IMG/VR virus record: IMGVR_UViG_3300045988_170068
DNA from: a virus
DNA: 64,000 nucleotides
Reading direction: 5' to 3' (one strand)
The translations under genes and the position numbers were made by a program. A model generated the notes under the pieces. That model worked only from the letters and a program-made list of their open reading frames with translations. It was not told where the DNA came from and did not search any database. Shown in pieces: positions 4,040 to 20,293 of the stretch (position 1 is its first letter; each line of letters begins with the position of its first letter).

Positions 4040-4420
4040 ATGAAAAAATTCAGATCCGTACTTTCTGTAATATTTGGAGTTATCTGTGCATTCAGTTTCT
4101 TTATCTGCATCAGTATCAATGCAGATCATCCTGATTGGTTCAAGTATCTCATGATTGGATTCATTACCTTTGTAGTGTCTTTCTTCCTTGCAAGCTTCTG
4201 CTACAACCCTCATAAATACATTCGTCATTTGTATGCGTCTTTCATGACCATTGCAACTAAGATTCATATTCATCGTAGACCTAATAGCAAACTTGCTGTA
4301 AGTGTCAGAGCAAGATTTTCCTCCAGGTATGGTGGTCGTTATAATAAGAAAATCAACTACAAGAAATTCTATCGTTATGCTCTTAGCTACTATGATAGAG
4401 ATCATTTTCAGGAGGTATGA
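4040..4420 (+). CDS. small membrane protein (two predicted TM helices)
   Basis: GGAGG upstream of the ATG. Hydrophobic N-terminal half and basic C-terminus. Confidence 0.55.
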   Translation: MKKFRSVLSVIFGVICAFSFFICISINADHPDWFKYLMIGFITFVVSFFLASFCYNPHKYIRHLYASFMTIATKIHIHRRPNSKLAVSVRARFSSRYGGRYNKKINYKKFYRYALSYYDRDHFQEV

Positions 4421-6909
4421 AAAAGTTGAATCTGAATGAAGAACAGAAGCGAGCAGTTGAGTGCGATGATGATCTAATTCTATGCATGGCTGGAGCAGGG
4501 TCTGGCAAAACAACTGTTCTCATTGAAAGAATAAGCAGACTTTGTGAAAAAGAAGATCCAAAGAGTATTCTTGCTCTTACATTTACAAATGCCGCAGCAT
4601 TTGAAATGAAGGACAGATACATAAGACGAAATCCTGGAAAGCTTGTACCAGAATTTAGAACATTCCACAGTTTCTGCTATTCTGTTCTTTGCACAGATTA
4701 TGAAATCCGAAATAAACTTGGATATCATTCTGTTCCGAGCATATGCGACGAAGCAAAGATGAAGCGTATTCAGAATACTGTTTATCTTGAATTAGGTCTA
4801 CATCTTTCTAAAGATGAATTAAATGGTAAGGTTAAATTAAGTCCAAAGCATAAGCAAGAATTTATTTTATACAAAAAGCGAATTAAAAAAGTAATGAAAG
4901 ACGAAAACATTATCACTTTCGATGAATTGTCTTCGTCTATCTGTGATTTGTTCTTCAACGAAGACCAATTGACCAATAAATACAAAGATCGATTCAAGTA
5001 TCTTCTTATTGATGAATTTCAGGATACAAGTCCTGAACAGTGGAAATTTGCAACTTCGTTCAAACATTCTAAAATTTTTCTTGTCGGCGATGAGATGCAA
5101 TGTCAACCGGCAGGGTCAATTGTAACTATGGCTGACATGACAAAAAAGAAAATAGAAGACCTTCAAATTGGGGATTATGTCTTATCATACAATAGGCGAG
5201 AAGGACGATATTTAAGATGCCTGAATTACAATAGCGGAAATTTGAATAGATATACAAGCAAAGTTACTGATATTTCTAAACATTTTGCGACAGACGTTGT
5301 TAAATTAGTTACAAGAAACCATGAAAGCAGATATACAAAATCGCATTTAACTTATGCAAGAATACATTTTCCGGGAAACGAAAATGCTTTTGTAACTTAT
5401 CTAATGAGTAACAAAAAAGGATGGTGGAGAGTAGGAAGTACTAAATTGTTTCTAACTTCTCAAAATGACTACTTTGGTCCAAGACTTAGATTGCAAGAAG
5501 AAAAGGGAAATAAAATATGGATACTTGGTGTTTACTCATCTCAAAATGAAGCTTGGATGAATGAACAGCTTGTTGCATATAAATACGGTATTCCTCAAGT
5601 TACATGGCAGCATAAAAATGTTAAATTTTCATTAGATGATGTAGACTATCTTTATTCAAATTTAGGCGATTTATCTGAAAAAGCGAATATTTGCTTGAAA
5701 GCTTACAGCAGGGACATAAACTATCCATTCTTTACAGATAAAGATAAAAATAACCATTTTTCAAAGCTTCATTTATTTGAATGCCGTGTCGGTAATATAA
5801 TCCCTGGTATATTTGATATTGTTGTTCCTGAAGAAAAATTTACATCAAATAATTATGTCGAACTTCGCAATTCATACGAACTAATTGAATCTGTTGTTGA
5901 CGAACCCGACCAGTATGTATATGGGTTAAATATTGATAATACACACAATTATGTTAGTGACGGAATACTAACTCATAATTGCATATACGCCTTCAGGGGC
6001 GCTGACAGCTCTATCATTAAGATGCTGTCAGAACTTGATTCTTGGACTCATATCTATCTTCCTAGAAATTATAGATCAACAACGCAAATATGCAGTTTCG
6101 CAAATAAAATTGTTCGTCAGTCTGGTAGCAAACTGAAGATAGAACTGATTTCTGATAGGTCAGGACCTAGTGTTACTGTTCTTCCTTCTACATCAAACAG
6201 ATATTCTGAACCTATTGGAATAGATGATTTTGCTACTTTCTGCGAAATGAATAGAAAGCTTGAAGGAACAACAGCAATTTTATGTAGATCAAACTCAGAA
6301 GTAGCAGAAGTTTGCAGAATGCTTGATGGTGCAGGACTAAACTATCTTACAGGTAAGAAGAACACAGACTACAAGTATATTCTTAAATCTGTAAAGGATA
6401 ACGAATATCTAGCAGACTGGCTTGCTTCTTACTTGAATGCAGATAAATACGCTGATTTTATTCGTATTCAGTCAATTGAAAATATGAGCAGAATTGATGT
6501 AATTGTAGATTATTTTTCAAATGTAAGGAAGATCCAAGAGAGACTTAGAAAAGTGGTAACTATTAGAAAAGCGTTGAAAGACCCTTCTAGGTCAAGGATG
6601 TCTATGGCAGTCGATATATTGACTATCTGTGGATTCAATCCCTTAGATAATCAAATTGAAGTAGACGAAAATTGTTCGTCTGACGAACTTTTTGAAGCAA
6701 TTACAGCAGTGATTGAAGAGAAGATTGTATCAGATCTATATGTAGGAACAATTCACAGCTCTAAGGGACTTGAATATGACAATGTATTTCTTTTCAATGT
6801 GAACGACTATTCATTCAAATTGAACAAAGAGGATCAGTGGAATCTTTATTATGTAGGTGTTACAAGGGCAAAGACTAATCTTGTTATATTCAAAGGAGAC
6901 GCATACTAA
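4417..6909 (+). CDS. UvrD/PcrA-like superfamily 1 DNA helicase, interrupted by an intein
   Basis: Walker A AGAGSGKTTV. Motif II LLIDEFQDTS. Motif III is split as VGDEMQ | intein | CIYAFRGAD. C-terminal VGVTRAK. The start could instead be TTG 4426, because GGAGG lies only 1 nt from ATG 4417. Confidence 0.85.
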   Translation: MKKLNLNEEQKRAVECDDDLILCMAGAGSGKTTVLIERISRLCEKEDPKSILALTFTNAAAFEMKDRYIRRNPGKLVPEFRTFHSFCYSVLCTDYEIRNKLGYHSVPSICDEAKMKRIQNTVYLELGLHLSKDELNGKVKLSPKHKQEFILYKKRIKKVMKDENIITFDELSSSICDLFFNEDQLTNKYKDRFKYLLIDEFQDTSPEQWKFATSFKHSKIFLVGDEMQCQPAGSIVTMADMTKKKIEDLQIGDYVLSYNRREGRYLRCLNYNSGNLNRYTSKVTDISKHFATDVVKLVTRNHESRYTKSHLTYARIHFPGNENAFVTYLMSNKKGWWRVGSTKLFLTSQNDYFGPRLRLQEEKGNKIWILGVYSSQNEAWMNEQLVAYKYGIPQVTWQHKNVKFSLDDVDYLYSNLGDLSEKANICLKAYSRDINYPFFTDKDKNNHFSKLHLFECRVGNIIPGIFDIVVPEEKFTSNNYVELRNSYELIESVVDEPDQYVYGLNIDNTHNYVSDGILTHNCIYAFRGADSSIIKMLSELDSWTHIYLPRNYRSTTQICSFANKIVRQSGSKLKIELISDRSGPSVTVLPSTSNRYSEPIGIDDFATFCEMNRKLEGTTAILCRSNSEVAEVCRMLDGAGLNYLTGKKNTDYKYILKSVKDNEYLADWLASYLNADKYADFIRIQSIENMSRIDVIVDYFSNVRKIQERLRKVVTIRKALKDPSRSRMSMAVDILTICGFNPLDNQIEVDENCSSDELFEAITAVIEEKIVSDLYVGTIHSSKGLEYDNVFLFNVNDYSFKLNKEDQWNLYYVGVTRAKTNLVIFKGDAY
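5101..5979 (+). mobile_element. intein (293 aa) in helicase motif III
   Basis: Starts with Cys (CQPAGSIV...). Block B TKSH. Ends ...VYGLNIDNTHNYVSDGILTHN, followed by a +1 Cys. The flanking exteins rejoin to the canonical VGDxxQxIYxFRGA. Confidence 0.8.
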
Positions 6910-11366: not shown

Positions 11367-11441
11367 TGGGGCGTAGCCAAGCGGAAAGGCAGTAGACTTT
11401 GACTCTATTATTCGCTGGTTCGAATCCAGCCGTCCCAGCCA
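11367..11441 (+). tRNA. tRNA-Gln(TTG)
   Basis: Hand-folded cloverleaf with U1:A72, anticodon loop CTTTGAC, T-loop TTCGAAT and encoded CCA. Confidence 0.85.
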
Positions 11442-11644
11442 GTGGTCAATTAGCTATTGACTGATGTCAGAGTAATCAGCTAACCTGACAAAGAATGAAA
11501 ATGATCGCTGAAAACTGCTACTAAAGGATGCGTCCTCGTTATTTACCTTAAGATAGGGGCTAATCATCTCCGGATTATTAGTTGATAATGAGTAGCGTGA
11601 CAATCTAAGCGGTAAGCTGATGAGTTAGTGTAGGAGGAATATAA

Positions 11645-12028
11645 ATGAAAATTCTTCGTCATCAAAACATAGAAGGAATGGCGAGAGTTGGATTTACTTC
11701 AGATAGCTACGAAGTATACGTCAATACAGACGATGGTGGAAAAATTCCTCACTTTCATTACAGACTGAAAAATGATTGGAATAAGTTTCACACATGTATA
11801 AAAATTGAAAGTCCTGGATATTTTCATCATACAGGCAAAGAAAGCGTGTTGAATTCTAAACAAATTAGATCGCTCATTCGATTTCTTAAGTCACCTGTAT
11901 CTCTATCACAATATAGTGAAAAATTTTCTAACAACTTTGAATTGATTATTTTTCTATGGAACATAAACAATTCGGATGTTATAGTTGATCCTGAAGCAAA
12001 AATTCCTGATTACTATCAACTAAATTAA
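11645..12028 (+). CDS. hypothetical protein (DUF4160-like PHFH motif?)
   Basis: GGAGG upstream of the ATG. GGKIPHFHY motif. Family assignment is weak. Confidence 0.45.
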   Translation: MKILRHQNIEGMARVGFTSDSYEVYVNTDDGGKIPHFHYRLKNDWNKFHTCIKIESPGYFHHTGKESVLNSKQIRSLIRFLKSPVSLSQYSEKFSNNFELIIFLWNINNSDVIVDPEAKIPDYYQLN

Positions 12029-12031
12029 ATC

Positions 12032-12053
12032 CAATCGTTATTAAGTATGTAGC
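12032..12053 (+). promoter_or_regulatory. 22-nt promoter-like box (CAATCGTTATTAAGTATGTAGC)
   Basis: Extended copy of the AATCGTTAT..ATGTAG box, 48 nt upstream of repeat unit C. Confidence 0.45.
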
Positions 12054-12101
12054 AGCTAATAAGCTGTAACATAAGGAGCTCACAATCCTGCCTAAGTAGA
12101 T

Positions 12102-12134
12102 GTCTCATTAGATATATAATGAGTGAATTGAAAT
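12102..12134 (+). repeat. solitary type I-C-like CRISPR repeat unit C
   Basis: GT-CTCATTA-GATATA-TAATGAG-TGAATTGAAAT: perfect 7-bp stem plus an 11-nt tail that differs by 1 nt from the I-C handle TGGATTGAAAT. Confidence 0.6.
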
Positions 12135-12235
12135 CGCACAAACTAGAAAAGAGTGAGTGGCAAGGAATATGCCAGGAATGATTCTAAGCTTGACATGCAA
12201 GTACAACCGGGTGAGAAACTAGTCCCGGTAAATAT

Positions 12236-12310
12236 TGTCAATTAGTTTATTAGGTAAAACATCATAGCTTAAGATATGATAAGTAGGTTCAAATCCTACA
12301 TTGACAGCCA
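12236..12310 (+). tRNA. tRNA-like gene with aberrant anticodon arm (8-nt loop GCTTAAGA; anticodon TAA?)
   Basis: Perfect acceptor stem TGTCAAT/ATTGACA. D arm GTTT/AAAC. T arm GTAGG-TTCAAAT-CCTAC. Encoded CCA. The only well-paired anticodon stem, TCATA/TATGA, leaves 8 loop nt and a 3-nt variable region. Confidence 0.5.
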
Positions 12311-12339
12311 TCGGTCATTGTTGACTGACGCCCTACCGA

Positions 12340-12378
12340 ATATGCTATCTTGGATCATCAGTAGCATATGCAGTTTTT
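12340..12378 (+). terminator. terminator-like hairpin
   Basis: ATATGCTA/TAGCATAT stem with a 14-nt loop, then GCAGTTTTT. Confidence 0.45.
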
Positions 12379-12430
12379 CAACTCTTTTTCTGCTCATCGA
12401 GTGTGTTGATAATAAAAGAGTCATATACAT

Positions 12431-12522
12431 GGCGCGATACCGAAGTGGTCACAACGGAGCGGTCTTGAAAACCGTAGGCGGTGATGAGCCGTCCGTGGGT
12501 TCGAATCCCACTCGCGCCGCCA
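12431..12522 (+). tRNA. tRNA-Ser(TGA)
   Basis: Acceptor GGCGCGA/TCGCGCC, anticodon loop CTTGAAA, long variable arm, T-loop TTCGAAT and encoded CCA. Confidence 0.9.
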
Positions 12523-12747
12523 TGCCTTTTCATATGCTGACATTAGATTGTCAAGTTGATGAAAGTGAAACCAACTATGCTGGCAGGTTGTCGACGGGTT
12601 GAAGAGCCGTAGAGTCTAAACTATTCTCCTCTATTCTAGAAAGAGTCGGAAAGCTAGGTCCCGTAGTAGCAGCCGAAAAGTATCCTAAAACGATAGGCGT
12701 TAAAACATGTTTTATAGGTGACAGCCTGGAAAGACAGGCAAATATAT

Positions 12748-12824
12748 TGCAGGGTGGACAAGTAGCTAAGTCGCCAGCTTCATGCGCTGGAAATCGCAGG
12801 TTCAAATCCTGCCCACTGCAACCA
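12748..12824 (+). tRNA. tRNA-Met-like (CAT) with bulged acceptor stem
   Basis: Anticodon arm CCAGC-TTCATGC-GCTGG and T arm GCAGG-TTCAAAT-CCTGC are clean. The acceptor TGCAGGG pairs with CC(A)CTGCA only if one A is bulged. The D-loop lacks GG. Confidence 0.5.
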
Positions 12825-13152
12825 TTGTCTACTGGTCACCATCTACATACGACAATCAAAACTGCATAGGAGATGGGATGGGCAACGGCAGCCCTGATAA
12901 GTGAAGCGATGTTCGAGTCATCAACCTGATCCTGTTCGACTCAGGCAGGGCATGGTGCAAAACTTATCAAGAGGAACTAAGTACCTGCCTCGCTTCGGAT
13001 AGCAAAGAAGGCGTTAGTAGTAATCGAAAAACTACTCGCGGTTACAGGGAGGGAGCGGCGTTATAGGTAAACCTCCTGGGTGTTCTGCTATCGTGCACCT
13101 TAGAAAGGCGAAGCTTTTCAGTTAGGACTAATCCGGCCAGATAGCAAAATAT

Positions 13153-13226
13153 GCGGATATAGTGTAACGGTAACATGCGACTCTTCCAAAGTCGTGTTGC
13201 GGGTTCGAGTCCCGTTATCCGCTCCA
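13153..13226 (+). tRNA. tRNA-Gly(TCC)
   Basis: Acceptor GCGGATA/TATCCGC, anticodon loop CTTCCAA, T-loop TTCGAGT and encoded CCA. Confidence 0.9.
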
Positions 13227-13244
13227 TAGAGGAAGGTGACAAAT

Positions 13245-13580
13245 ATGTCTGTTTATAAATGCCCAATTTGCGGAGGAAGAGGATTTGTTCCTTGCGGATT
13301 CTATTCAAGTCAAACATATGATGGAAGCTCAGTGACTAATTCTACTTCAAACGAAGTTTGTAGAAGCTGTCATGGTAGAGGAATCGTATTTGATGAATTC
13401 TTAGGATCAACTTCAAATAGTATTCATAGATGTTGCAGTAATTGTGAAATGAACGATGGTTTGGTTTATACATCTAATCCCCCTAAGTACAGATGTACTT
13501 TATCTGGTTATTTCAATGAAGGAACACATGTATGCAATCTAGATGATATTTTGTCAAATGGAAATAACCAATCTAAATAA
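13245..13580 (+). CDS. Cys-rich protein with DnaJ-type CxxCxGxG zinc-finger repeats
   Basis: CPICGGRGFV and CRSCHGRGIV. ATG 13245 is preceded by GGAAGGTGA. Confidence 0.5.
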   Translation: MSVYKCPICGGRGFVPCGFYSSQTYDGSSVTNSTSNEVCRSCHGRGIVFDEFLGSTSNSIHRCCSNCEMNDGLVYTSNPPKYRCTLSGYFNEGTHVCNLDDILSNGNNQSK

Positions 13581-13625
13581 GTTGATACTCGGTAGGGCGC
13601 TGCGGTGTGCTTGACCGTGTGTTTC

Positions 13626-13661
13626 CGTCCAGGTGTTGGCGCACCTGGACGCTTTCTTTTT
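13626..13661 (+). terminator. rho-independent terminator
   Basis: 10-bp GC-rich stem CGTCCAGGTG/CACCTGGACG followed by CTTTCTTTTT. Confidence 0.8.
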
Positions 13662-13668
13662 CTATCTA

Positions 13669-13692
13669 GTAAATTATTAACGAATGATTAAG
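13669..13692 (+). promoter_or_regulatory. 24-nt box GTAAATTATTAACGAATGATTAAG (copy 1)
   Basis: Identical 24-mer at 59339-59362. Both copies lie just upstream of TTGACT -35 elements. Confidence 0.5.
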
Positions 13693-13696
13693 ACTA

Positions 13697-13725
13697 TTGA
13701 CTTTTCACAAGAATCGTTATATAAT
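13697..13725 (+). promoter_or_regulatory. sigma-A-type promoter (TTGACT-17-TATAAT)
   Basis: -35 at 13697-13702, -10 at 13720-13725, 17-nt spacer. The spacer and -10 contain the AATCGTTAT box. Confidence 0.65.
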
Positions 13726-13778
13726 ATGTACATAAGTCAGCCAACACATCAAAAAGCTTCAAAGCTAAGGAGAACAAA

Positions 13779-14009
13779 ATGAACGGATACATTATCAAAG
13801 CTACATACCTCACCGGTCCGAACACAGGAAGATCTTATTTCCTTCAAAAAGCGCTTGAAAGAAGCAACATGCTTGAACACGTATTAGAGAAGAGATACAG
13901 AGAGTATCAATCTAAAAACGGGTACAATGTATCGAAATACATGATCAACGAATTGATGAAATACACACCGTATTTCGTCAAAACTGTTCACAATTCGGAT
14001 GTTCACTGA
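13779..14009 (+). CDS. hypothetical protein
   Basis: 76-aa ORF with AAGGAG upstream of the ATG. Confidence 0.5.
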   Translation: MNGYIIKATYLTGPNTGRSYFLQKALERSNMLEHVLEKRYREYQSKNGYNVSKYMINELMKYTPYFVKTVHNSDVH

Positions 14010-14022
14010 GGAGGTATTCATA

Positions 14023-14295
14023 ATGATCATCAATTCTCGTTTTGAAGCAAGAAAGTCTGTTGAGCATAGTTTCGAGCTTGCGTCCAAGCTTCATATGACT
14101 GTCATCAATGTCTTTCATAAGGACTTGATTACAGGTGAAATTGTTCTCACTGATATGTTCAGCCACGATAGTATTCAAGCCGTTACATGGAGAGACAATT
14201 ACCTTGAATCGTTAAAGAAGCTAGAGGTACCTTACATTTGCTATGTGGGAGATCATTTCACAGAAGCATCTGGCTACTTAGACTTTGAGGAGTGA
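14023..14295 (+). CDS. hypothetical protein
   Basis: ATG 14023 lies 7-8 nt after GAGGAGG. The track start at 13999 lacks an SD. Confidence 0.5.
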   Translation: MIINSRFEARKSVEHSFELASKLHMTVINVFHKDLITGEIVLTDMFSHDSIQAVTWRDNYLESLKKLEVPYICYVGDHFTEASGYLDFEE

Positions 14296-14300
14296 CAATC

Positions 14301-14597
14301 ATGGATAGAAAAGTTTTTGAAGCTTTATCTTCTGCAAATAAATTGATCAACCATCAACTTGATTGTCAAAAGGCCGCTATTCTTGATATAAAAAAGGCCA
14401 TTGAAGAAACATCGAAAGCTTTCAATATCACTTACAAACAGGGCCGCAGTGAAGGATTTGAATCCGAAACTATTGAAGACACAGCAGGAATATATGCTCT
14501 GCTTGTTGGAGCAAAATCTGAAATCGAATGTGCTGTTTCTAAACTTGAGGAAGCTAAGAACATGATGCCCAATTTTGATAAAGGAAAGAATATATGA
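14301..14597 (+). CDS. hypothetical protein
   Basis: ATG 14301 follows GAGGAG. Confidence 0.5.
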   Translation: MDRKVFEALSSANKLINHQLDCQKAAILDIKKAIEETSKAFNITYKQGRSEGFESETIEDTAGIYALLVGAKSEIECAVSKLEEAKNMMPNFDKGKNI

Positions 14598-14989
14598 AAC
14601 GAATAATCAAGAAATCGGCTGTAATCGGGATGGCTAAAGAACCGTCAAGAGGTGTTTTTTGGATAGTTGATGGAAAAGTCCTGTCATTTCCTTTTTACAA
14701 TGACATAACTTCTCCCGGCGTTGCTAAATCCGGATTGACTTACAACCACAAAAATTTGTGGCCCGATGTTAAACCTAAAGGATGCAATAAACCGTATAAT
14801 TACTACCCTCGTGGACGAGTGGAGCTAGGAAAGAAAAATCCTATCATATATGTAAATCCTAACTTCGATAAATATGATTTAGCAGAAGTTAGAAAGGATT
14901 TTGGACTTATCAATGAGCCTAAAGTAGTATTTGATAATTCAGATCATTACAAATGTTATCTAGATGACGGATGGAAGCCAGATAAATAA
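14594..14989 (+). CDS. hypothetical protein (FWIVDG...YYPRGRV motifs)
   Basis: 131-aa ORF coupled to the upstream gene (ATGA). I cannot name the family. Confidence 0.5.
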   Translation: MKRIIKKSAVIGMAKEPSRGVFWIVDGKVLSFPFYNDITSPGVAKSGLTYNHKNLWPDVKPKGCNKPYNYYPRGRVELGKKNPIIYVNPNFDKYDLAEVRKDFGLINEPKVVFDNSDHYKCYLDDGWKPDK

Positions 14990-15011
14990 CAATCGTTATA
15001 TAAAATGTAGT
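14990..15011 (+). promoter_or_regulatory. 22-nt promoter-like box (CAATCGTTATATAAAATGTAGT)
   Basis: Extended box ending 10 nt before tRNA-Leu(TAA). Confidence 0.5.
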
Positions 15012-15021
15012 AATCAAATTT

Positions 15022-15106
15022 GCTGGTGTGGTGGAACAGGCAGACACAGGGGACTTAAAATCCCTCGGAGAAATCCTTACGAGTTCGAATCTCGTCACCA
15101 GCACCA
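15022..15106 (+). tRNA. tRNA-Leu(TAA)
   Basis: Acceptor GCTGGTG/CACCAGC, anticodon loop CTTAAAA, long variable arm, T-loop TTCGAAT and encoded CCA. Confidence 0.9.
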
Positions 15107-15108
15107 CT

Positions 15109-15140
15109 GTCGTAGTCAAATTGATTACGTGGATTGAAAC
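15109..15140 (+). repeat. solitary type I-C-like CRISPR repeat unit A
   Basis: GT-CGTAGTC-AAATT-GATTACG-TGGATTGAAAC, 32 nt. It has a 5' GTCG, a 7-bp stem (one G-U) and the tail CGTGGATTGAAAC, as in canonical I-C repeats. Begins 2 nt after the tRNA CCA. Confidence 0.7.
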
Positions 15141-15160
15141 GAATCCCGTCACCAGCACCA
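15141..15160 (+). repeat. 20-nt duplicate of the tRNA-Leu(TAA) 3' end, directly abutting repeat unit A
   Basis: GAATCCCGTCACCAGCACCA versus 15087-15106 GAATCTCGTCACCAGCACCA: 19 of 20 identical. Confidence 0.85.
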
Positions 15161-16134
15161 AATGAGGGTTTGTCCTCAAGTAATGCTACTGAAAGTGCAT
15201 CCTTACGGTGGAGGTATTGGTTAACCGTTATTAGATTATTGTAAAATACAATAGAAAATAAAAGCGAGGTTCAATTCAACAGTAGTTCAATTTTGTTAAA
15301 TGAATTACTTTTGATGGTCCGGTACGATTCCGGAGGGATTGTCTTCATTCCTAACGCTTAGACCTATCTTTTCTATATAGCTGGCCACTATTCTGCCAAT
15401 CGACGGATTGGATGAGGTTTCGACCATCAGATAAACGGCTGAAAATGTATAGGCGTTTACTGCTTAACGAAATGAAGCGGGCTGTTGTTCATCTCAGGAT
15501 AAGAAGATGGCGTGCCAGCCGACATTGTTAGCCTATTTCGGTAGGTATTCGGTTAGAATAAGGAATGCTACTTATTCGGGAGCTAAATTGAATGTGCATC
15601 CTTCTGAAGTTGGAGTCTCGAAGATAACGTTTCTGAGAGATAGATTTTAAGTTAGTACTTAGAATTGAGGTTAAACTTGTCAGCTCCTAAAAGTTAATAT
15701 CGAGCAAACTCACCATAAAGTGTTCTAGCTGCTAATCTAAAAGAGAATGAGATGATTAGAAGGATTGAGCGAATCTAGATGCTCGTTATTATATTTGCCA
15801 TCTGCTGGTCCTACACAGCAGTGAGGATGGTAGGACATCCAATAACTAAGCGAACAGCCGAAATAGCGCCGGACACCTCGCCCGTTGAGGAGGGAATTTG
15901 AACAAAAAGGTGAGATATGTTCACACCAGAACATAAGGGCATATGGAATGGTGGAAATGCTTACTAAACCAAGCTGCCAGGTTATCTGATAAGAAGTCAG
16001 GATTTGAGGCAGATAAGTGATAGAATGAAGTAATCTCATTTGACTTTGAGAAGAACCTTTCATATTATCACTTAATGAGTTCTATGCGTTGCAAACACTT
16101 CTCTCATTCGGGAAAGAAAAGAAGGGTTAGACAT
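15161..16134 (+). ncRNA. ~1 kb ORF-free, structure-rich block between tRNA genes (candidate large ncRNA and/or ORF-less intron-like element)
   Basis: No plus-strand ORF. Long-range pairs TGATGGTC 15312-15319 with GACCATCA 15422-15429. Pseudoknot-like CTGCTG-GTCCTAC-A-CAGCAG...GTAGGAC near 15800-15838. An 18-mer is shared with the polA intron. Confidence 0.4.
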
Positions 16135-16209
16135 GGCGCCTTGGTCAAGTGGTTAAGACACGGCCCTTTCACGGCTGTAACACGGGTTCGAGTCCCGTAG
16201 GCGTCACCA
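16135..16209 (+). tRNA. tRNA-Glu(TTC)
   Basis: Acceptor GGCGCCT/AGGCGTC, anticodon loop CTTTCAC, T-loop TTCGAGT and encoded CCA. Confidence 0.9.
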
Positions 16210-16300
16210 TCACATCATATAAGATGTGTTAAGTGTGATATATGGTAACAGATTCCGACCTAAGCGCACGGGTCTTCTAGAGGCCTTCGGAATCGAATAT

Positions 16301-16376
16301 CCGGGTGTAGCTCAGATGGTAGAGCGCGTGGTTTGGGACCACGAGGCCGCTGGTTCGAAACCAGTCACTCGGACCA
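16301..16376 (+). tRNA. tRNA-Pro(TGG)
   Basis: C1:G72 acceptor CCGGGTG/CACTCGG, anticodon loop TTTGGGA, T-loop TTCGAAA and encoded CCA. Confidence 0.9.
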
Positions 16377-16406
16377 TTTTTCACCCAACAGGAATGGGGT
16401 AGTAGT

Positions 16407-16949
16407 ATGAAGAAATTGATTAGACGAATGCCTGTAGTGAAAAAGTATATTGATATTATAGTCAATATTGACGACTACAAAAATGATTCATCTATTGCTG
16501 CTAATTCATTCACAAAAGCAAGAACATTTCAACCATCCGTTAAGAAAAAGTTCAAGATTTCAGATGAAGCGTTAAATATGTATACTGATTTCTTAAATTG
16601 CATACTCGAAGTAATTGTTAGAAACGGATTGAAAATATCTAAGCAATATCAATCTAAGAAAGGATACACATACTATATTCAGGTTGATCATATTGGATTA
16701 GTTGACGGAACAAAAATAAAGTACGAAATAACATTCAGGATAAACAATAATGTTAATCCTACTTTGAACAAAGGGCCTAAATTTGAGGGCAGCAGACAAA
16801 TGGTCATGCCTATAATGAAAAATATCAAGCTTGGAAAATTTGATCCTGCTGTCTACTCCGAAGCAATGTTTCATCTAAATAAAGTTTGTAAAGGTATACG
16901 AGAAGACAACAGAGATATTCTAGTAAACGAAGACATCTATTTCAATTGA
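16407..16949 (+). CDS. hypothetical protein
   Basis: 180-aa ORF between tRNA clusters with a weak SD. Confidence 0.5.
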   Translation: MKKLIRRMPVVKKYIDIIVNIDDYKNDSSIAANSFTKARTFQPSVKKKFKISDEALNMYTDFLNCILEVIVRNGLKISKQYQSKKGYTYYIQVDHIGLVDGTKIKYEITFRINNNVNPTLNKGPKFEGSRQMVMPIMKNIKLGKFDPAVYSEAMFHLNKVCKGIREDNRDILVNEDIYFN

Positions 16950-16957
16950 AATATGTA

Positions 16958-16979
16958 GAATCGTTATATAACATGTAGG
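16958..16979 (+). promoter_or_regulatory. 22-nt promoter-like box (GAATCGTTATATAACATGTAGG)
   Basis: Extended box followed by about 100 nt of ORF-free hairpin-containing sequence. Confidence 0.45.
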
Positions 16980-17080
16980 CGGCATCCATCTCGGATACAA
17001 TACTACAACGTAGATAGAGAAAACATTTTCTCTGTAATGAGAGGTAAGATACTCTTGAAGTAGCCTAAAAAAATAAATTA

Positions 17081-17102
17081 GCATCGTTATATATCATGTA
17101 GC
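17081..17102 (+). promoter_or_regulatory. 22-nt promoter-like box (GCATCGTTATATATCATGTAGC)
   Basis: Extended box ending 9-10 nt before tRNA-Thr. The leader CATCAAATAT resembles TAATCAAATT upstream of tRNA-Leu(TAA). Confidence 0.5.
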
Positions 17103-17111
17103 ATCAAATAT

Positions 17112-17187
17112 GCTGGATTAGCTCAGTTGGCAGAGCGCGTGATTTGTAATCTCGAGGTCAAGGGTTCGAGTCCCTTATCCAGCTCCA
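17112..17187 (+). tRNA. tRNA-Thr(TGT)
   Basis: Acceptor GCTGGAT/ATCCAGC, anticodon loop TTTGTAA (one U-U mismatch in the stem), T-loop TTCGAGT and encoded CCA. Confidence 0.85.
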
Positions 17188-17189
17188 TT

Positions 17190-17221
17190 GCCACAATTTA
17201 TTAGATTGTGCGGATTGAAAC
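17190..17221 (+). repeat. solitary type I-C-like CRISPR repeat unit B
   Basis: GC-CACAATT-TATTA-GATTGTG-CGGATTGAAAC, 32 nt, with the same 2+7+5+7+11 layout as unit A. Begins 2 nt after the tRNA-Thr CCA. Confidence 0.65.
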
Positions 17222-17276
17222 CATCTCATCTCCTTCCTGATCCAGTTTCTGGTCTGGATAAAAACCATGTAAATAT

Positions 17277-17352
17277 GCTGATGTAGCTCAACAGGTTAGA
17301 GCCGGCGACTTATAATCGTCAGATTCGAGTTCGACTCTCGGCGTCAGTACCA
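17277..17352 (+). tRNA. tRNA-Ile(TAT)
   Basis: Acceptor GCTGATG/CGTCAGT (two G-U pairs), anticodon loop CTTATAA, T-loop TTCGACT and encoded CCA. Confidence 0.8.
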
Positions 17353-17545
17353 GGGGTAACCAAACTACCTTAATCGTTTGGTGAGGACTCAAGTTACTCG
17401 AGTTAGGTCAGCTTGACATCCAATAGTGAGGACCTACGACAGGTGAGAATGACGGCTTAGTCCTTTCTTGAATAAACAGAACCTGACCCATTGGCCAAAA
17501 GGGTGAACGCTGCTTCAAGGTAAAGAAAGGCAACAAATTCTATAT

Positions 17546-17622
17546 GGGAGCATAGCTCAGTTGGTTAGAGCGCATGACTGTTAATCATGATGTCGAAGGT
17601 TCGAGTCCTTCTGTTCCCGCCA
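17546..17622 (+). tRNA. tRNA-Asn(GTT)
   Basis: Acceptor GGGAGCA/TGTTCCC, anticodon loop CTGTTAA, T-loop TTCGAGT and encoded CCA. Confidence 0.9.
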
Positions 17623-18170
17623 GCGCCTATATCAGTCTAGGTCTTGAAATGATATAGAGACCAATGCATTATCTTTTTAGAAAGGTAGTGTATCTGATGA
17701 AAAAGAGATCATCAACTCTCGGCGAATTATAACTTGACGAATTTTTCTTTTGAAACAAAGAAGTAGCAGGTTCGTCTCTGCGCTTAATCTACTGAACTGC
17801 AATGTTGATGTAAGCAGTAATTAGGTTCCCAAACCAATTCAGGGAGATTAAGAAAAAGTTTGCTTATTTAGTAGAAAGAGGGTTGGAGGGGCACAGCAAG
17901 TAGAATAAAAGGACCTATCCAGAATGCCAGGATTGACATCATAAAATGATGTCAATGAGAGCATCAGTATTAGACCACGGTGAAGCGATGTGATGATGAT
18001 AGGAATTGGGACTATCTAATTTCATCTAATGCCGGTATACATCTGGTTGTGTAGGTAGGCAACAAATTTGAAAGCTATTACAGGATGTGCCAAGGAGTAG
18101 AAGTAATCACCTCTGTCTACTGTGTATTTCTTCTAAATAAGTTCAACTTTTTTATTAAGGAGTTTGAAAA
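17623..18170 (+). ncRNA. ~550-nt ORF-free hairpin-rich block (candidate structured ncRNA)
   Basis: No ORF of 60 aa or more on either strand. Perfect 10-bp hairpin TTGACATCAT-AAA-ATGATGTCAA at 17932-17954. CTATATCA/TGATATAG near 17626-17662. Confidence 0.3.
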
Positions 18171-18386
18171 ATGAAAACAATCACTTTTATCAGTTATGAT
18201 AAATATCCAAAAACATTTAGAAAGTTTCACATTTTTAAGAAGCGTTTTTCTTCGTTATCAGATATTGCTAGATTCCTGCAAGTTTCTAGTAAAATCTATT
18301 TGAAAAATCCGATGAACGAGTTGTCTAAAGACGAACTAAGAATTCTTTCAATGAAAGTTCGATCGTTAAATAAAATGAAGGTGTAG
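18171..18386 (+). CDS. hypothetical protein
   Basis: 71-aa ORF with AAGGAG upstream. Its last 10 nt overlap the start of tRNA-Lys. Confidence 0.4.
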   Translation: MKTITFISYDKYPKTFRKFHIFKKRFSSLSDIARFLQVSSKIYLKNPMNELSKDELRILSMKVRSLNKMKV

Positions 18387-18452
18387 CTCAGTAGGTAGAG
18401 CACCTGCCTTTTAAGCAGGCTGTCAAGAGTTCGAATCTCTTCACCTTCACCA
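18377..18452 (+). tRNA. tRNA-Lys(TTT)
   Basis: Acceptor GAAGGTG/CACCTTC, anticodon loop CTTTTAA, T-loop TTCGAAT and encoded CCA. Confidence 0.9.
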
Positions 18453-18458
18453 AAATAT

Positions 18459-18543
18459 GCACCTGTGGTGGAACTGGCAGACACGCTTGACTTAGGATCA
18501 AGTGCCTTCAGGTTTAAGGGTTCGAGTCCCTTCAGGTGCACCA
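18459..18543 (+). tRNA. tRNA-Leu(TAG)
   Basis: Acceptor GCACCTG/CAGGTGC, anticodon loop CTTAGGA, long variable arm and encoded CCA. Confidence 0.9.
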
Positions 18544-18548
18544 TATAT

Positions 18549-18587
18549 GGAGGATTAGCTCAGCTGGTTAGAGCAACTGACTTACAT
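18549..18587 (+). pseudogene. 5' fragment of a disrupted tRNA-Val(TAC) gene
   Basis: GGAGGAT-TA-GCTC-AGCTGGTTA-GAGC-A-ACTGA-CTTACAT. No complementary TCAGT follows. Confidence 0.7.
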
Positions 18588-18630
18588 CTTTAGTGTAACC
18601 CAAATAGTAATTACCTAATATAAATGTGAG

Positions 18631-19455
18631 GTGATAAATTTGAGCAAACTTAAAGATGTAATGTCAAGAATATCAGATATGACGAACGGGAGGTATTCAA
18701 TAGCAGGAGAATTCAAAGGATATGATCAACCCTTATCAATAAGATGCAATATTCATAAACAAGTATTTGATATAAAACACGCACAATATTTACTTGAGGT
18801 CTGTAAAAATCCTAACAAAATATTCTATGGATGCAAAGAATGTAGAAAAGAAAAGGACGGCACAATTGAATTAAATTGCGAAATTTGTGGAAAGAAAATT
18901 ATCAGACCTAGAGGTTGGGCAAATGGAAACAAAAGCAAATTTGCTTTCTGTTGTAGAGAACATAAGAATATTGCCCAAAGGTTAGAATCAGGATTTGGTG
19001 ATATGATTCCATCGCATTATGGAACAAGAAAAGATTACCGATACATAGCTTTCAGAATATATCCGCATAAATGCGCAGTTTGCGGCTGGGACGAGGATGA
19101 AAGAATATTGGAAGTTCATCATAAAGATATGAACAGAGAAAACAATTCCGACGATAACTTAATTATCCTTTGCCCAAATTGCCATTCAAAAATATCAAAA
19201 GGATTGTATATGCTGCAAGGTAATTTACTTGTTGATCCCGATGATAACTACTTAAAGTTCTTTAGTTTGCATACTTACAGAACTAAATCTCCTGGTATGT
19301 CTTGTAAAGTAATTTGCGTAGAAGATGGCTTAGTTTTCAAGTCAATAACAGAATGTGCAAATCACTACAGAGTATCGGATACAACTATCAATTATGCTAC
19401 TGTATCTGATAATAAATTATGCAAATCCTTAGATAAGCATTTTGAGAGGATATAA
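18631..19455 (+). CDS. HNH homing endonuclease
   Basis: HHKDMNRENNSDDNLIILCPNCH. Several CxxC pairs. C-terminal VFKSITECANHY DNA-binding-like module. The start is GTG 18631, TTG 18640 or ATG 18661. Confidence 0.8.
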   Translation: MINLSKLKDVMSRISDMTNGRYSIAGEFKGYDQPLSIRCNIHKQVFDIKHAQYLLEVCKNPNKIFYGCKECRKEKDGTIELNCEICGKKIIRPRGWANGNKSKFAFCCREHKNIAQRLESGFGDMIPSHYGTRKDYRYIAFRIYPHKCAVCGWDEDERILEVHHKDMNRENNSDDNLIILCPNCHSKISKGLYMLQGNLLVDPDDNYLKFFSLHTYRTKSPGMSCKVICVEDGLVFKSITECANHYRVSDTTINYATVSDNKLCKSLDKHFERI

Positions 19456-19457
19456 AT

Positions 19458-19532
19458 GCACCGTGTCCTCGGTGGTCTGAGGGCTTGGCTTACATCCAAG
19501 TACATTGAGTTCGATTCTCAAACGGTGTACCA
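19458..19532 (+). tRNA. tRNA-Val(TAC), divergent replacement copy
   Basis: Acceptor GCACCGT/ACGGTGT (G1-U72), anticodon arm CTTGG-CTTACAT-CCAAG, T arm TTGAG-TTCGATT-CTCAA and encoded CCA. Starts 2 nt after the HNH stop. Confidence 0.8.
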
Positions 19533-19559
19533 AAAGTTCGAATCTTGCATTCTCCACCA
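19533..19559 (+). pseudogene. 3' fragment of the disrupted tRNA-Val gene
   Basis: ..GTTCGAATCTTGC-ATTCTCC-A-CCA. ATTCTCC pairs with the GGAGGAT acceptor strand at 18549. The 5' strand of the T stem is missing. Confidence 0.6.
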
Positions 19560-19565
19560 TTATTT

Positions 19566-19642
19566 GGCCAAGTAGTTCAGTTGGTTAGAACGCCAGCCTG
19601 TCACGCTGGAGGTCGAGGGTTCGAGCCCCTTCTTGGTCGCCA
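19566..19642 (+). tRNA. tRNA-Asp(GTC)
   Basis: Acceptor GGCCAAG/CTTGGTC, anticodon loop CTGTCAC, T-loop TTCGAGC and encoded CCA. Confidence 0.9.
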
Positions 19643-19647
19643 TATTT

Positions 19648-19722
19648 GGGTCCGTATTTCAATGGGAGAAAGCTTCTTTTGCACGGAAGAGGTTGCGTGT
19701 TCGAATCACGTCGGATCCACCA
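19648..19722 (+). tRNA. tRNA-Ala(TGC)
   Basis: Acceptor GGGTCCG/CGGATCC with the G3-U70 identity pair, anticodon loop TTTGCAC and encoded CCA. Confidence 0.9.
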
Positions 19723-19843
19723 TTTGAGACTTCAGCCAAGTTGGCTAGAAAGTCGTATTAAATGACATACAATGAGACGATACCAAGACTTTAGTTCGTT
19801 ACAGAGCGGTGACTGAATGTCAAATCCCTTATGTCATTTATCT

Positions 19844-19920
19844 GGGCCTTTAGCTCAGTTGGTTAGAGCCTCCGGCTCATAACCGGATCGTCCCGGGTTC
19901 GAATCCCCGAAGGCCCACCA
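19844..19920 (+). tRNA. tRNA-Met(CAT) (elongator or Ile2-type)
   Basis: Acceptor GGGCCTT/AAGGCCC, anticodon loop CTCATAA, one C-C mismatch in the T stem and encoded CCA. Confidence 0.8.
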
Positions 19921-20074
19921 TAATTGGTACAACACGACTGTAACGGCTCCCGCGGTTTAGAGTTGTATCCCGTTTCTTAGTTGAAGCGTGAAGTGTCAAG
20001 AGAGCCTCACCAGACGAGCCATATGGGCACCACCTAGCGGTGAAAAGATATGATAAGCTCGTCAATCATTAAAT

Positions 20075-20151
20075 ACCTCAGTAGCTCAGCTGGATAGAGC
20101 AACTGCCTTCTAAGCAGTAGGCCACAGGTTCGAGTCCTGTTTGAGGTGCCA
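20075..20151 (+). tRNA. tRNA-Arg(TCT)
   Basis: Acceptor ACCTCAG/TTGAGGT, anticodon loop CTTCTAA, T-loop TTCGAGT and encoded CCA. Confidence 0.85.
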
Positions 20152-20224
20152 GAAAGCACATTAAATAACGTGGAATAAAAATAGAGGTTGTGCTGGGACG
20201 TTGAGCCTCTTGTAAAAACAATAA

Positions 20225-20293
20225 GATGCTTTACGCCAGTAGGTAGACGGCTCTTGTACAGAGAAGCCGCTGGTTCGATTCCAGCAATCATCA
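20225..20293 (+). pseudogene. degenerate tRNA-like sequence (GTA/Tyr-like loop), no CCA
   Basis: Good T arm GCTGG-TTCGATT-CCAGC. Acceptor GATGCTT/AATCATC has one mismatch. The D and anticodon arms pair poorly, and only 44 nt precede the T stem. Confidence 0.3.

Follow-up and report, generated by a model that had tools for sequence, protein, structure and literature searches.

A modular, structured plus-strand RNA locus built around a RAGATH-36-type core in a phage tRNA array

Two classes of large phage non-coding RNA (ncRNA) lie in or near tRNA islands and form cages bridged by kissing loops (PMC12286853): GOLLD (RF01998), a very large multi-domain RNA with widely conserved and less conserved parts and loop-loop complementarity, and ROOL (RF03087), a phage and prophage RNA of several hundred nucleotides (nt) with pseudoknots and no known protein partner (PMC5737381, PMC12286853). 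Paired T-loops dock on the tRNA elbow in the S-domain of RNase P, in Stem I of the T-box and in the L1 stalk of 23S rRNA (PMC4810234). RAGATH-36 (RF03104) is a family found in phages and prophages of gut Clostridia, and a literature search found no paper mentioning it. Here we compared with these systems the block at positions 15161-16134 of a 64,000-nt viral DNA (IMG/VR record IMGVR_UViG_3300045988_170068; the whole stretch is called the window), which a first-pass annotation had described as a candidate giant ncRNA, highly structured and free of open reading frames (ORFs), between tRNA genes. Judged by the comparisons below, the block is a real, structured, plus-strand ncRNA locus under base-pairing selection, and its core (15260-15688) belongs to RAGATH-36.

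The first-pass annotation had pointed to GOLLD and ROOL, and the setting agreed with that suggestion while the class did not. Like GOLLD, the block is very large, lies within a phage tRNA island and combines widely and less widely conserved domains with complementary loops; like ROOL, it spans several hundred nt, contains pseudoknots and has no known protein partner. A cmscan search of 15107-16134 (1028 nt, both strands) at E ≤ 10 gave no match to GOLLD, ROOL, group I or II introns, HEARO, raiA, RNase P RNA or tmRNA, and ARAGORN called no tmRNA; the motifs are unrelated to those of GOLLD, and motifs and architecture differ from those of ROOL. Oligomers are known for GOLLD, whereas the complementary loops of the present block were read from the sequence alone. 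At Rfam gathering thresholds only tRNAs were reported. The only non-tRNA match in the E ≤ 10 search was a sub-threshold one to RAGATH-36 at 15315-15481 (43.4 bits; E = 3e-7 for 1 kb and 2.9e-6 for 10 kb), which aligned with the model end to end (positions 1-128) and missed the gathering score of 70 bits because of a 55-nt insert in helix P3 and weak pairs in P3 and P4.

The likeness to RAGATH-36 ran through the whole model and beyond it. P1 together with the preceding UGG reads UGG-UCCGG-UACGAUU-CCGGA (15315-15334; 5 bp, 7-nt loop), P2 is followed by the invariant UAACGCUUAG (together 15335-15361), which occurs once in the 64-kb window, and P3 ends in ...CUGAAA...GGCGUU before the GAAA hairpin P4. 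Pairs of both P3 and P4 change on both sides between alleles (alignment pairs 273-279:357-363 and 375/377:389/387). Distant loci from the same motif search (numbered here with the prefix L) are bona fide RAGATH-36 members scoring 73-136 bits, and they share with the window two regions outside the 128-nt model, the 5′ motif AAGCGAGGUUCRAU and a 3′ region that we term block 2. When nhmmer was run with the clade alignment, L006, L012, L015 and L002 matched profile positions 142-290 and 467-600, and distant members were matched at two places outside the model besides inside it. On these comparisons, the core is a divergent, insertion-expanded RAGATH-36 member. It departs from the consensus in the length of the P3 insert (55 nt versus ~20 nt), in its enlarged hairpin Pa and linker (core of 429 nt versus about 250-330 nt), in the addition of a 5′ mini-module and a 446-nt 3′ domain, and in being embedded in a tRNA array. 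By a genome scan, the family occurs in metagenome-assembled genomes of Oscillospiraceae, Acutalibacteraceae, Herbinix, other Clostridia and one Saccharibacteria bin.

Inspection of about 45 distinct members revealed a common 5′-to-3′ plan consisting of AAGCG, a junction strand AGGUUCRAN, Pa, UGG, P1, P2, UAACGCUUAG, P3, GCGUU, P4, a linker and block 2 (Table 1). AAGCG is able to form a helix, P0, with the CGCUU of UAACGCUUAG, and P0 would close a four-way junction. The P1 stem occurred in eight covarying versions across the family around a loop U-A-M-R-A-U-U. The pentamers UUCAA (15270-74) and UACGA (15323-27) fit, at the level of sequence, the T-loop pattern U-N-N-R-A, and family variants kept U1, R4 and A5. 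Taken together, the comparison assigns to the core an architecture in which P0 closes a four-way junction holding two T-loop-like pentamers, followed by P2-P4 and a pseudoknotted block 2 with a covarying closing helix. The natural RAGATH-36 RNA, so delimited, is ~250-460 nt long rather than 128 nt, and the Rfam model covers well under half of it.

Table 1. Features of the RNA block and its boundaries (window numbering)
Feature	Positions	Strand	Detail and basis
Candidate promoter	13697..13725	+	TTGACT-17-TATAAT, 11/12 consensus matches; consensus scan only
tRNA-Leu(UAA)	15022..15106	+	upstream boundary of block; ARAGORN and Rfam
Duplicated tRNA-Leu 3′ end	15141..15160	+	GAATCCCGTCACCAGCACCA; compare 15087-15106; sequence and alignments
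5′ module	15161..15259	+	miniature copy of block 2; sequence and alignment
5′ module, hairpins	15164-15177; 15179-15190	+	second hairpin with loop AAUGCU
5′ module, GUGCAUCC	15195-15202	+	AUGC 15183-86 can pair with GCAU 15197-200
5′ module, GGUGGAGG	15207-15214	+	
5′ module, UGGUUAACC	15218-15226	+	palindromic
RAGATH-36-type 5′ domain	15260..15555	+	Rfam RF03104 match, compensatory changes, family comparison
Helix P0	15262-66 : 15355-59	+	AAGCG : CGCUU; part of 5′ domain
Junction strand AGGUUCAAU	15267-75	+	holds T-loop-like pentamer UUCAA 15270-74
Pa	15276-15314	+	variable hairpin; 5′ domain
P1	15318-15334	+	UCCGG-UACGAUU-CCGGA, like tRNA T-arm
P2	15335-15351	+	5′ domain
UAACGCUUAG	15352-61	+	invariant motif after P2
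P3	15362-15453	+	55-nt three-way-junction insert with hairpins 15396-15411, 15416-15425
P4	15462-15478	+	5′ domain
Linker hairpins	15490-15509; 15517-15554	+	5′ domain
Block 2	15556..15688	+	pseudoknotted 3′ domain of family, outside Rfam model; nhmmer, covariation, descriptor scan
Block 2, hairpin H	15556-15577	+	loop GAAUGCUA
Block 2, closing helix	15578-84 : 15682-88	+	GGGAGCU : AGCUCCU
Block 2, pseudoknot	15565-68 : 15596-99	+	AUGC : GCAU
Block 2, UUGGAG	15610-15	+	follows small hairpin
Block 2, two variable hairpins	15615-15664	+	
Block 2, UUGAGGUUAAAC	15665-76	+	
3′ domain	15689..16134	+	446 nt; ends ...GGGUUAGACAU, flush with tRNA-Glu
Hairpin H1	15802-15821	+	5′ strand 15802-15807; loop GUCCUAC 15808-14
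Hairpin H2	15825-15840	+	loop GUAGGAC 15830-36
3-bp hairpin	within 15845-15858	+	compensatory change
Hairpin CUGA/UCAG	15986-16000	+	changes to CUGG/CCAG
Hairpin UCUCA/UGAGA	16034-16051	+	compensatory change UCUCG/UGAGA to UCUAG/UUAGA
tRNA-Glu(UUC)	16135..16209	+	downstream boundary of block; ARAGORN and Rfam

Block 2 showed the clearest separation of conserved order from variable sequence. In the family it consists of a hairpin with loop AAAUGCUG, the 5′ strand of the closing helix, AAAGUGCAUCCUU, a small hairpin and UUGGAG, followed by a variable hairpin, UUGAGGUUAAAC or UGGUUAACC and the 3′ strand of the closing helix, and the family-wide RNA ends there, at 15688. Hairpin H occurred with at least nine stem versions. 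The closing helix differed in sequence in nearly every lineage while keeping its position (GGGAGCU:AGCUCCU, CGCGGUA:UACCGUG, GUGGG:CCCAU, GAGCGCG:CGCGCUU, CGGACGGU:ACCGUCUG, CAGCAGCA:UGCUGUUG and GAAGGGGU:ACCCCUUU), and a strand paired with its own partner over 6.8 bp on average versus 4.6 bp for mismatched partners (Mann-Whitney p = 6e-7). The loop sequence AUGC is complementary to GCAU within GUGCAU, so that the two can pair, and L001 and L156 changed both sides to give GUGC:GCAC. A structural descriptor of block 2 had 22 hits across the 0.49 Mb of related loci, whereas 1.08 Mb of unrelated viral DNA gave none. Complete copies of block 2 alone were present beside a tRNA in L005 (9118-9225), L007 (385-492) and L153 (3407-3514), each composed of the AAAUGCUG hairpin, GUGCAUCC, GGUGGAGG, UGGUGAACC and an 8-bp closing helix; tRNA-Ala lies ~120 nt upstream of the module, which is followed closely by a Shine-Dalgarno sequence and ATG. 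This occurrence as a complete module on its own identifies block 2 as a portable domain absent from Rfam. Another 14 apparently standalone hits of a block-2 pattern scan were discarded as chance matches inside coding sequence.

Several observations were made at the canonical RAGATH-36 loci. The phages of L005, L006, L007, L015, L002, L008 and L012 carried RAGATH-4 and RAGATH-16 within a few kb, and L012 had a pistol ribozyme inside its tRNA array. Tandem or truncated RAGATH-36-type copies lay ~0.4-1 kb apart in L002 (oriented 12281-12350 and 12697-13030) and L155 (4319-4700 and 5363-5660), and the copy in L159 had an internal deletion. A conserved ORF of ~40 amino acids (aa), overlapping the stop codon of the upstream gene, ended inside the RNA 5′ motif AAGCGAGGUUCGAU (L005 6859-6978; equivalent sites in L002, L006, L007 and L015) with the pattern M-(I/V)-KRF...G-(F/L)-IE-(F/Y)-R-x-YGFGG-x-YL-x-IGQ...TL-(K/R)-RGSM. 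Differences between loci at synonymous third positions suggest that it is translated. We dropped the idea that the 5′ motif is kept as the coding end of this ORF (KRGSM and stop), because conservation of the motif is no lower at loci with a stop codon ahead of it (the window and L012).

Selection on the block as a whole was assessed in its closest relatives. The motif search of viral contigs yielded 15 loci, five of them full-length relatives with 85-98% identity, and retrieval through the neighbouring ligase gene together with a metagenome scan raised the total to 13 full-length relatives (14 sequences with the window). The retrieval via the NAD-ligase returned the same clade and one distant phage without the RNA; a scan of viral contigs with the 15-mer GCCGGACACCTCGCC gave chance matches only (L016-L134), which were reused as the 1.08 Mb of negative-control DNA. 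The clade sequences are mosaics with two or three allele types per segment, and across the 13 relatives the alleles differ mostly through compensatory changes in plus-strand helices. RNAalifold on six sequences found 24 pairs with double changes. When a structure predicted from the window only was mapped on ten sequences, 17 pairs had changed on both sides, compared with 4-8 in slid controls, and 4 of 500 shuffles reached 17. Nine pairs switch through G:U, and such G:C/G:U and A:U/G:U switches fit the plus strand only. The structured character noted in the first pass was substantiated. Its individual helices fared unevenly. The hairpin CCAATC-GACG-GATTGG (15396-15411) changes to CCATTC/GAATGG in other alleles and so stands, whereas the helix drawn between TGATGGTC (15312-15319) and GACCATCA (15422-15429) found no support: it overlaps the family-wide P1 and the UUCG hairpin 15416-15425, which has a compensated change of its own (GGU/ACC to GGC/GCC), and in the other allele it would contain three U:G pairs and one A:C mismatch.

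The same alignments bear on whether the block derives from a protein gene that decayed or was frameshifted, or consists of several small ORFs. Such a reading would draw on the 108-aa minus-strand ORF at 15737-16063 and on several plus-strand ORFs of 39-47 aa, the longest in the block being 47 aa. The minus-strand ORF has no Pfam match; it is intact in 7 of 14 homologues and shortened to 65 aa in the other seven, L140 carries 4-nt and 5-nt indels within it, and its amino-acid sequence diverges faster than its DNA. The aa identity of 85-95% over nucleotide columns that are mostly invariant means that many of the nucleotide changes alter the protein. Substitutions tracked base-pairing rules and not codon positions, and a blastn search with the block returned nothing from 50,697 GenBank phage records. 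There is no conserved ORF in 15161-16134 on either strand, as the first-pass annotation had held, and we give next to no credence to a protein-coding origin. The GC content, described there as visibly higher than that of the flanks, is raised only modestly (0.38-0.43 versus 0.29-0.38 in flanking coding DNA).

Outside the core, the block is modular. The 5′ module is a miniature block 2 without the closing helix, and L146 carries unrelated sequence in its place, which makes the module exchangeable. The 3′ domain begins where the family core ends in the other lineages, and exact 20-22-mers from it recovered near-identical phages only (8 viral and 5 metagenome contigs) and no diverged homologue. 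Its first part, 15689-15801, was invariant in 13 of 14 sequences, and five hairpins further on showed compensatory changes despite the low divergence. Two of these are adjacent hairpins 1-3 nt apart, H1, whose stem CTGCTG...CAGCAG changes to CTGCAA/TTGCAG, and H2, whose stem GGAU/AUCC changes to GGUU/AACC; their 8-nt loops are complementary over 7 nt (GUCCUAC:GUAGGAC), and one A-to-G change in a loop keeps a U:G pair. Over 13 sequences of the 3′ domain, eight pairs (30 cells) carried changes in both partners, six slid controls gave none, and the paired fraction of cells was 99.7%. Variable columns were depleted at paired positions (11% versus 25%, p = 8e-5; predicted long-range helices p = 9e-8), a result that is supportive only, because RNAalifold favours conserved columns. 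Two long-range pairings were set aside. That of GCGAGGU in the 5′ motif with ACCUCGC (15876-82), predicted by RNAalifold, has two invariant strands, and its apparent analogue in L156 is explained better by the block-2 closing helix; that of CUAAGCG (15846-52) with CGCUUAG (15355-61) loses two of seven pairs in some alleles, uncompensated.

The first-pass annotation had placed an H-type pseudoknot near 15800-15838. The hairpin and the complementarity of its loop to GUAGGAC are real, and since GUAGGAC itself lies in the loop of H2, the arrangement is of the loop-loop (kissing) kind rather than a simple H-type pseudoknot. On geometric grounds, full pairing of the two neighbouring loops would be difficult within one molecule and favoured between molecules. 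This consideration belongs to the reading in which 15161-16134 is one mature RNA of ~975 nt that multimerises through loop-loop contacts, like GOLLD or ROOL, and encapsulates or scaffolds other molecules; candidate contacts would be the H1 and H2 loops and the palindromic GGUUAACC (15219-26). The size and tRNA-island context match those of the two cage-forming classes (PMC12286853), both ends of the block are flush with tRNA-type junctions, and between the modules there is no tRNA, strong terminator or convincing promoter. Set against this are the missing match to either covariance model, the exchange of the 5′ module in L146, the end of the core at 15688 in all other lineages, the restriction of the 3′ domain to one phage clade, and the lack of covariation linking the modules; H1 and H2 could also form an intramolecular H-type pseudoknot. 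We regard a single giant RNA as unlikely, and its most elaborate form, a third giant ornate class in which the core docks on tRNA and the 3′ domain self-assembles through H1-H2, as improbable. Of the candidate giant ncRNA, the non-coding, plus-strand and structured character stood, and the block proved modular, with a 5′ mini-module, a RAGATH-36 core and a clade-specific 3′ domain.

The ends of the block and of the core pointed to tRNA processing. Conservation of the block in the relatives runs from 15161 (AAUGAGGG) to 16134, immediately adjoining tRNA-Glu; the two flanking tRNAs are placed as in the first-pass annotation. In L139 and L141 the tRNA-Leu 3′ end ...ACCA directly abuts the block. 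The window has a specific 34-nt insert (15107-15140) followed by a duplicated tRNA-Leu end, which by its sequence is a rearrangement scar at the tRNA/RNA junction. Elsewhere in the family the core ends 0-10 nt before a tRNA (L001, L012, L156, L157, L158, L179, L184/L186, L185 and L191), at an intrinsic terminator (L155b), or, in the canonical subgroup, ahead of a Shine-Dalgarno sequence and gene. RNase P cleaves tRNA precursors at the 5′ end of the tRNA, and the flush junctions imply that in many lineages the RNA would owe its 3′ end to this enzyme. A candidate promoter is preceded by a strong terminator-like hairpin (13626-13651); a consensus scan found no comparable terminator between this promoter and the RNA and no comparable signal inside the block. 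A promoter-like site at 16040-16068 was rejected, as L140 has a 5-nt insertion in its spacer.

The upstream junction (window 15107-15160) is also a hot spot of rearrangement: small accessory ORFs occupy 2-3.5 kb at this site in L143 (1074-4544) and L014, and L140 and L142 have a different tRNA upstream of the RNA block.

We consider it probable that the block is a plus-strand, multi-domain structured RNA locus comprising a RAGATH-36 core and two clade modules, which would act in trans after maturation together with the tRNAs. For this reading we infer a transcript, its processing, an action in trans and a link to tRNA. The block would be co-transcribed with the tRNA array, probably from 13697-13725, and excised by tRNA-processing enzymes through 3′ maturation of the upstream tRNA and RNase P cleavage at 16134/16135; the released RNA would act through its conserved tertiary fold, docking on the tRNA elbow, mimicking it or engaging the tRNA-handling machinery. 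Two pentamers with the T-loop pattern of interdigitated double T-loop modules (UUCRA and UAMRA, positions 1 and 5 invariant across the family) sit in one junction, and the genomic link to tRNA genes fits elbow docking; the resemblance here is one of sequence only. P1 differs by one base from a canonical tRNA T-arm and might just as well imitate a T-arm on its own (GGUACGAUUCC compared with tRNA GGUUCGAUUCC). Given the two pentamers and the recurrent fusion to tRNA genes, a tRNA-directed or tRNA-mimicking role is our best guess as to function, and a tentative one.

The modules might instead be separate elements, or structured spacers of the tRNA precursor that guide or protect its processing and are excised as pieces without function in trans. 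Their exchangeability, the standalone block 2 next to a tRNA in three loci, and compensatory changes in five pairs of another spacer of the array agree with this. The motifs AGGUUCRA, UACGAUU, UAACGCUUAG and AAUGCU/GUGCAU are nevertheless invariant across distant phages and metagenome-assembled genomes, and they are kept even where no tRNA is nearby, once with the RNA's own terminator, which argues for a function of the RNA itself; we hold the spacer explanation possible and rather doubtful. That other spacer (12825-13152, 328 nt, between tRNA-Met and tRNA-Gly) is ORF-poor, has a GC content of ~0.48 and matches nothing in Rfam. Five of its predicted pairs change on both sides yet stay paired among seven relatives, in three hairpins (GGGC/GCCC, GGGAGG/CCUCCU and GAAAGGC/GCUUUUC). 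This spacer probably holds another structured RNA, and structured spacers may be general in the array.

A third alternative is a cis-regulatory leader, riboswitch-like or protein-binding, that controls the downstream gene. A Shine-Dalgarno sequence and start codon follow the element at ~15-30 nt in L005, L006, L007, L008, L015 and L002b, most newly scanned members lack a downstream tRNA, and the standalone block 2 of L005 likewise stands ahead of a Shine-Dalgarno sequence and ATG. The element of the window, like that of at least ten other lineages, is followed by a tRNA and not by coding sequence, L155b ends in a terminator, and two tRNAs separate the window element from the first ORF after it (16407). 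A cis-acting role is thus very unlikely for the window.

Returning to the trans-acting, multi-domain RNA that we favour, a number of points weigh against it. At 43 bits the window falls short of the RAGATH-36 gathering threshold of 70, and many canonical members lie upstream of a protein gene, not a tRNA. All known copies of the 3′ domain come from near-identical phages within a single clade, no variation occurs in its predicted long-range helices, and no supported base pairing joins it to the core. Conservation alone is uninformative, because all array spacers are 91-99% identical among the available relatives. Folding-energy z-scores against shuffles were modest and similar on both strands (core, plus strand, -2.16; 3′ domain, plus strand -2.85 and minus strand -2.61), and thermodynamics alone would therefore not carry the claim. 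The promoter scan as a whole performed at the level of shuffled sequence (31 sites versus 31.7 expected). The placing of promoter and processing sites, like the number of mature RNAs, is deduced, and the idea of a tRNA interaction is one of motif resemblance only.

For RAGATH-36, an uncharacterised family, the comparison supplies an anatomy with a closing helix, two T-loop pentamers and a covarying, pseudoknotted 3′ domain. The recurrent flush fusion to tRNA genes yields testable ideas, namely that RNase P releases the RNA and that the RNA docks on the tRNA elbow or mimics it, and multimer formation by the complementary H1 and H2 loops is directly testable. The locus adds a candidate, alongside GOLLD and ROOL, to the short list of phage ncRNAs in tRNA islands that approach 1 kb. 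If the block is processed into several pieces, the tRNA arrays of these phages would still carry several selected RNA structures besides tRNAs.

The genomic context is that of a large uncultivated phage. The array comprises 18 plus-strand tRNA genes (11367-20293; ARAGORN and Rfam), and three of the calls there are odd (12236-12310, 19457-19529 and 20225-20293): one has an anticodon loop that ARAGORN could not assign (49 bits with the Rfam tRNA model), another resembles tRNA-Sec weakly (37.5 bits against a gathering score of 47) and a third scores 38.5 bits in Rfam without an ARAGORN call. Neighbouring genes encode a UvrD helicase with an intein, an SbcC-like ATPase, DnaB, an NAD-dependent ligase, glyA and tail proteins, and related contigs measure 75-148 kb. 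The pattern of RNAs beside tRNA genes in phages and prophages of Firmicutes, cited in the first pass, is consistent with family relatives in metagenome-assembled genomes of Clostridia and, only distantly, with DnaB, whose best matches, at no more than 30% identity, are in Bacillus, Streptococcus and Clostridium phages. An HNH endonuclease ORF within the array (18631-19455) and the intein-splicing domain of the UvrD-like helicase (4417-6909) point to traffic of mobile elements in this genome.

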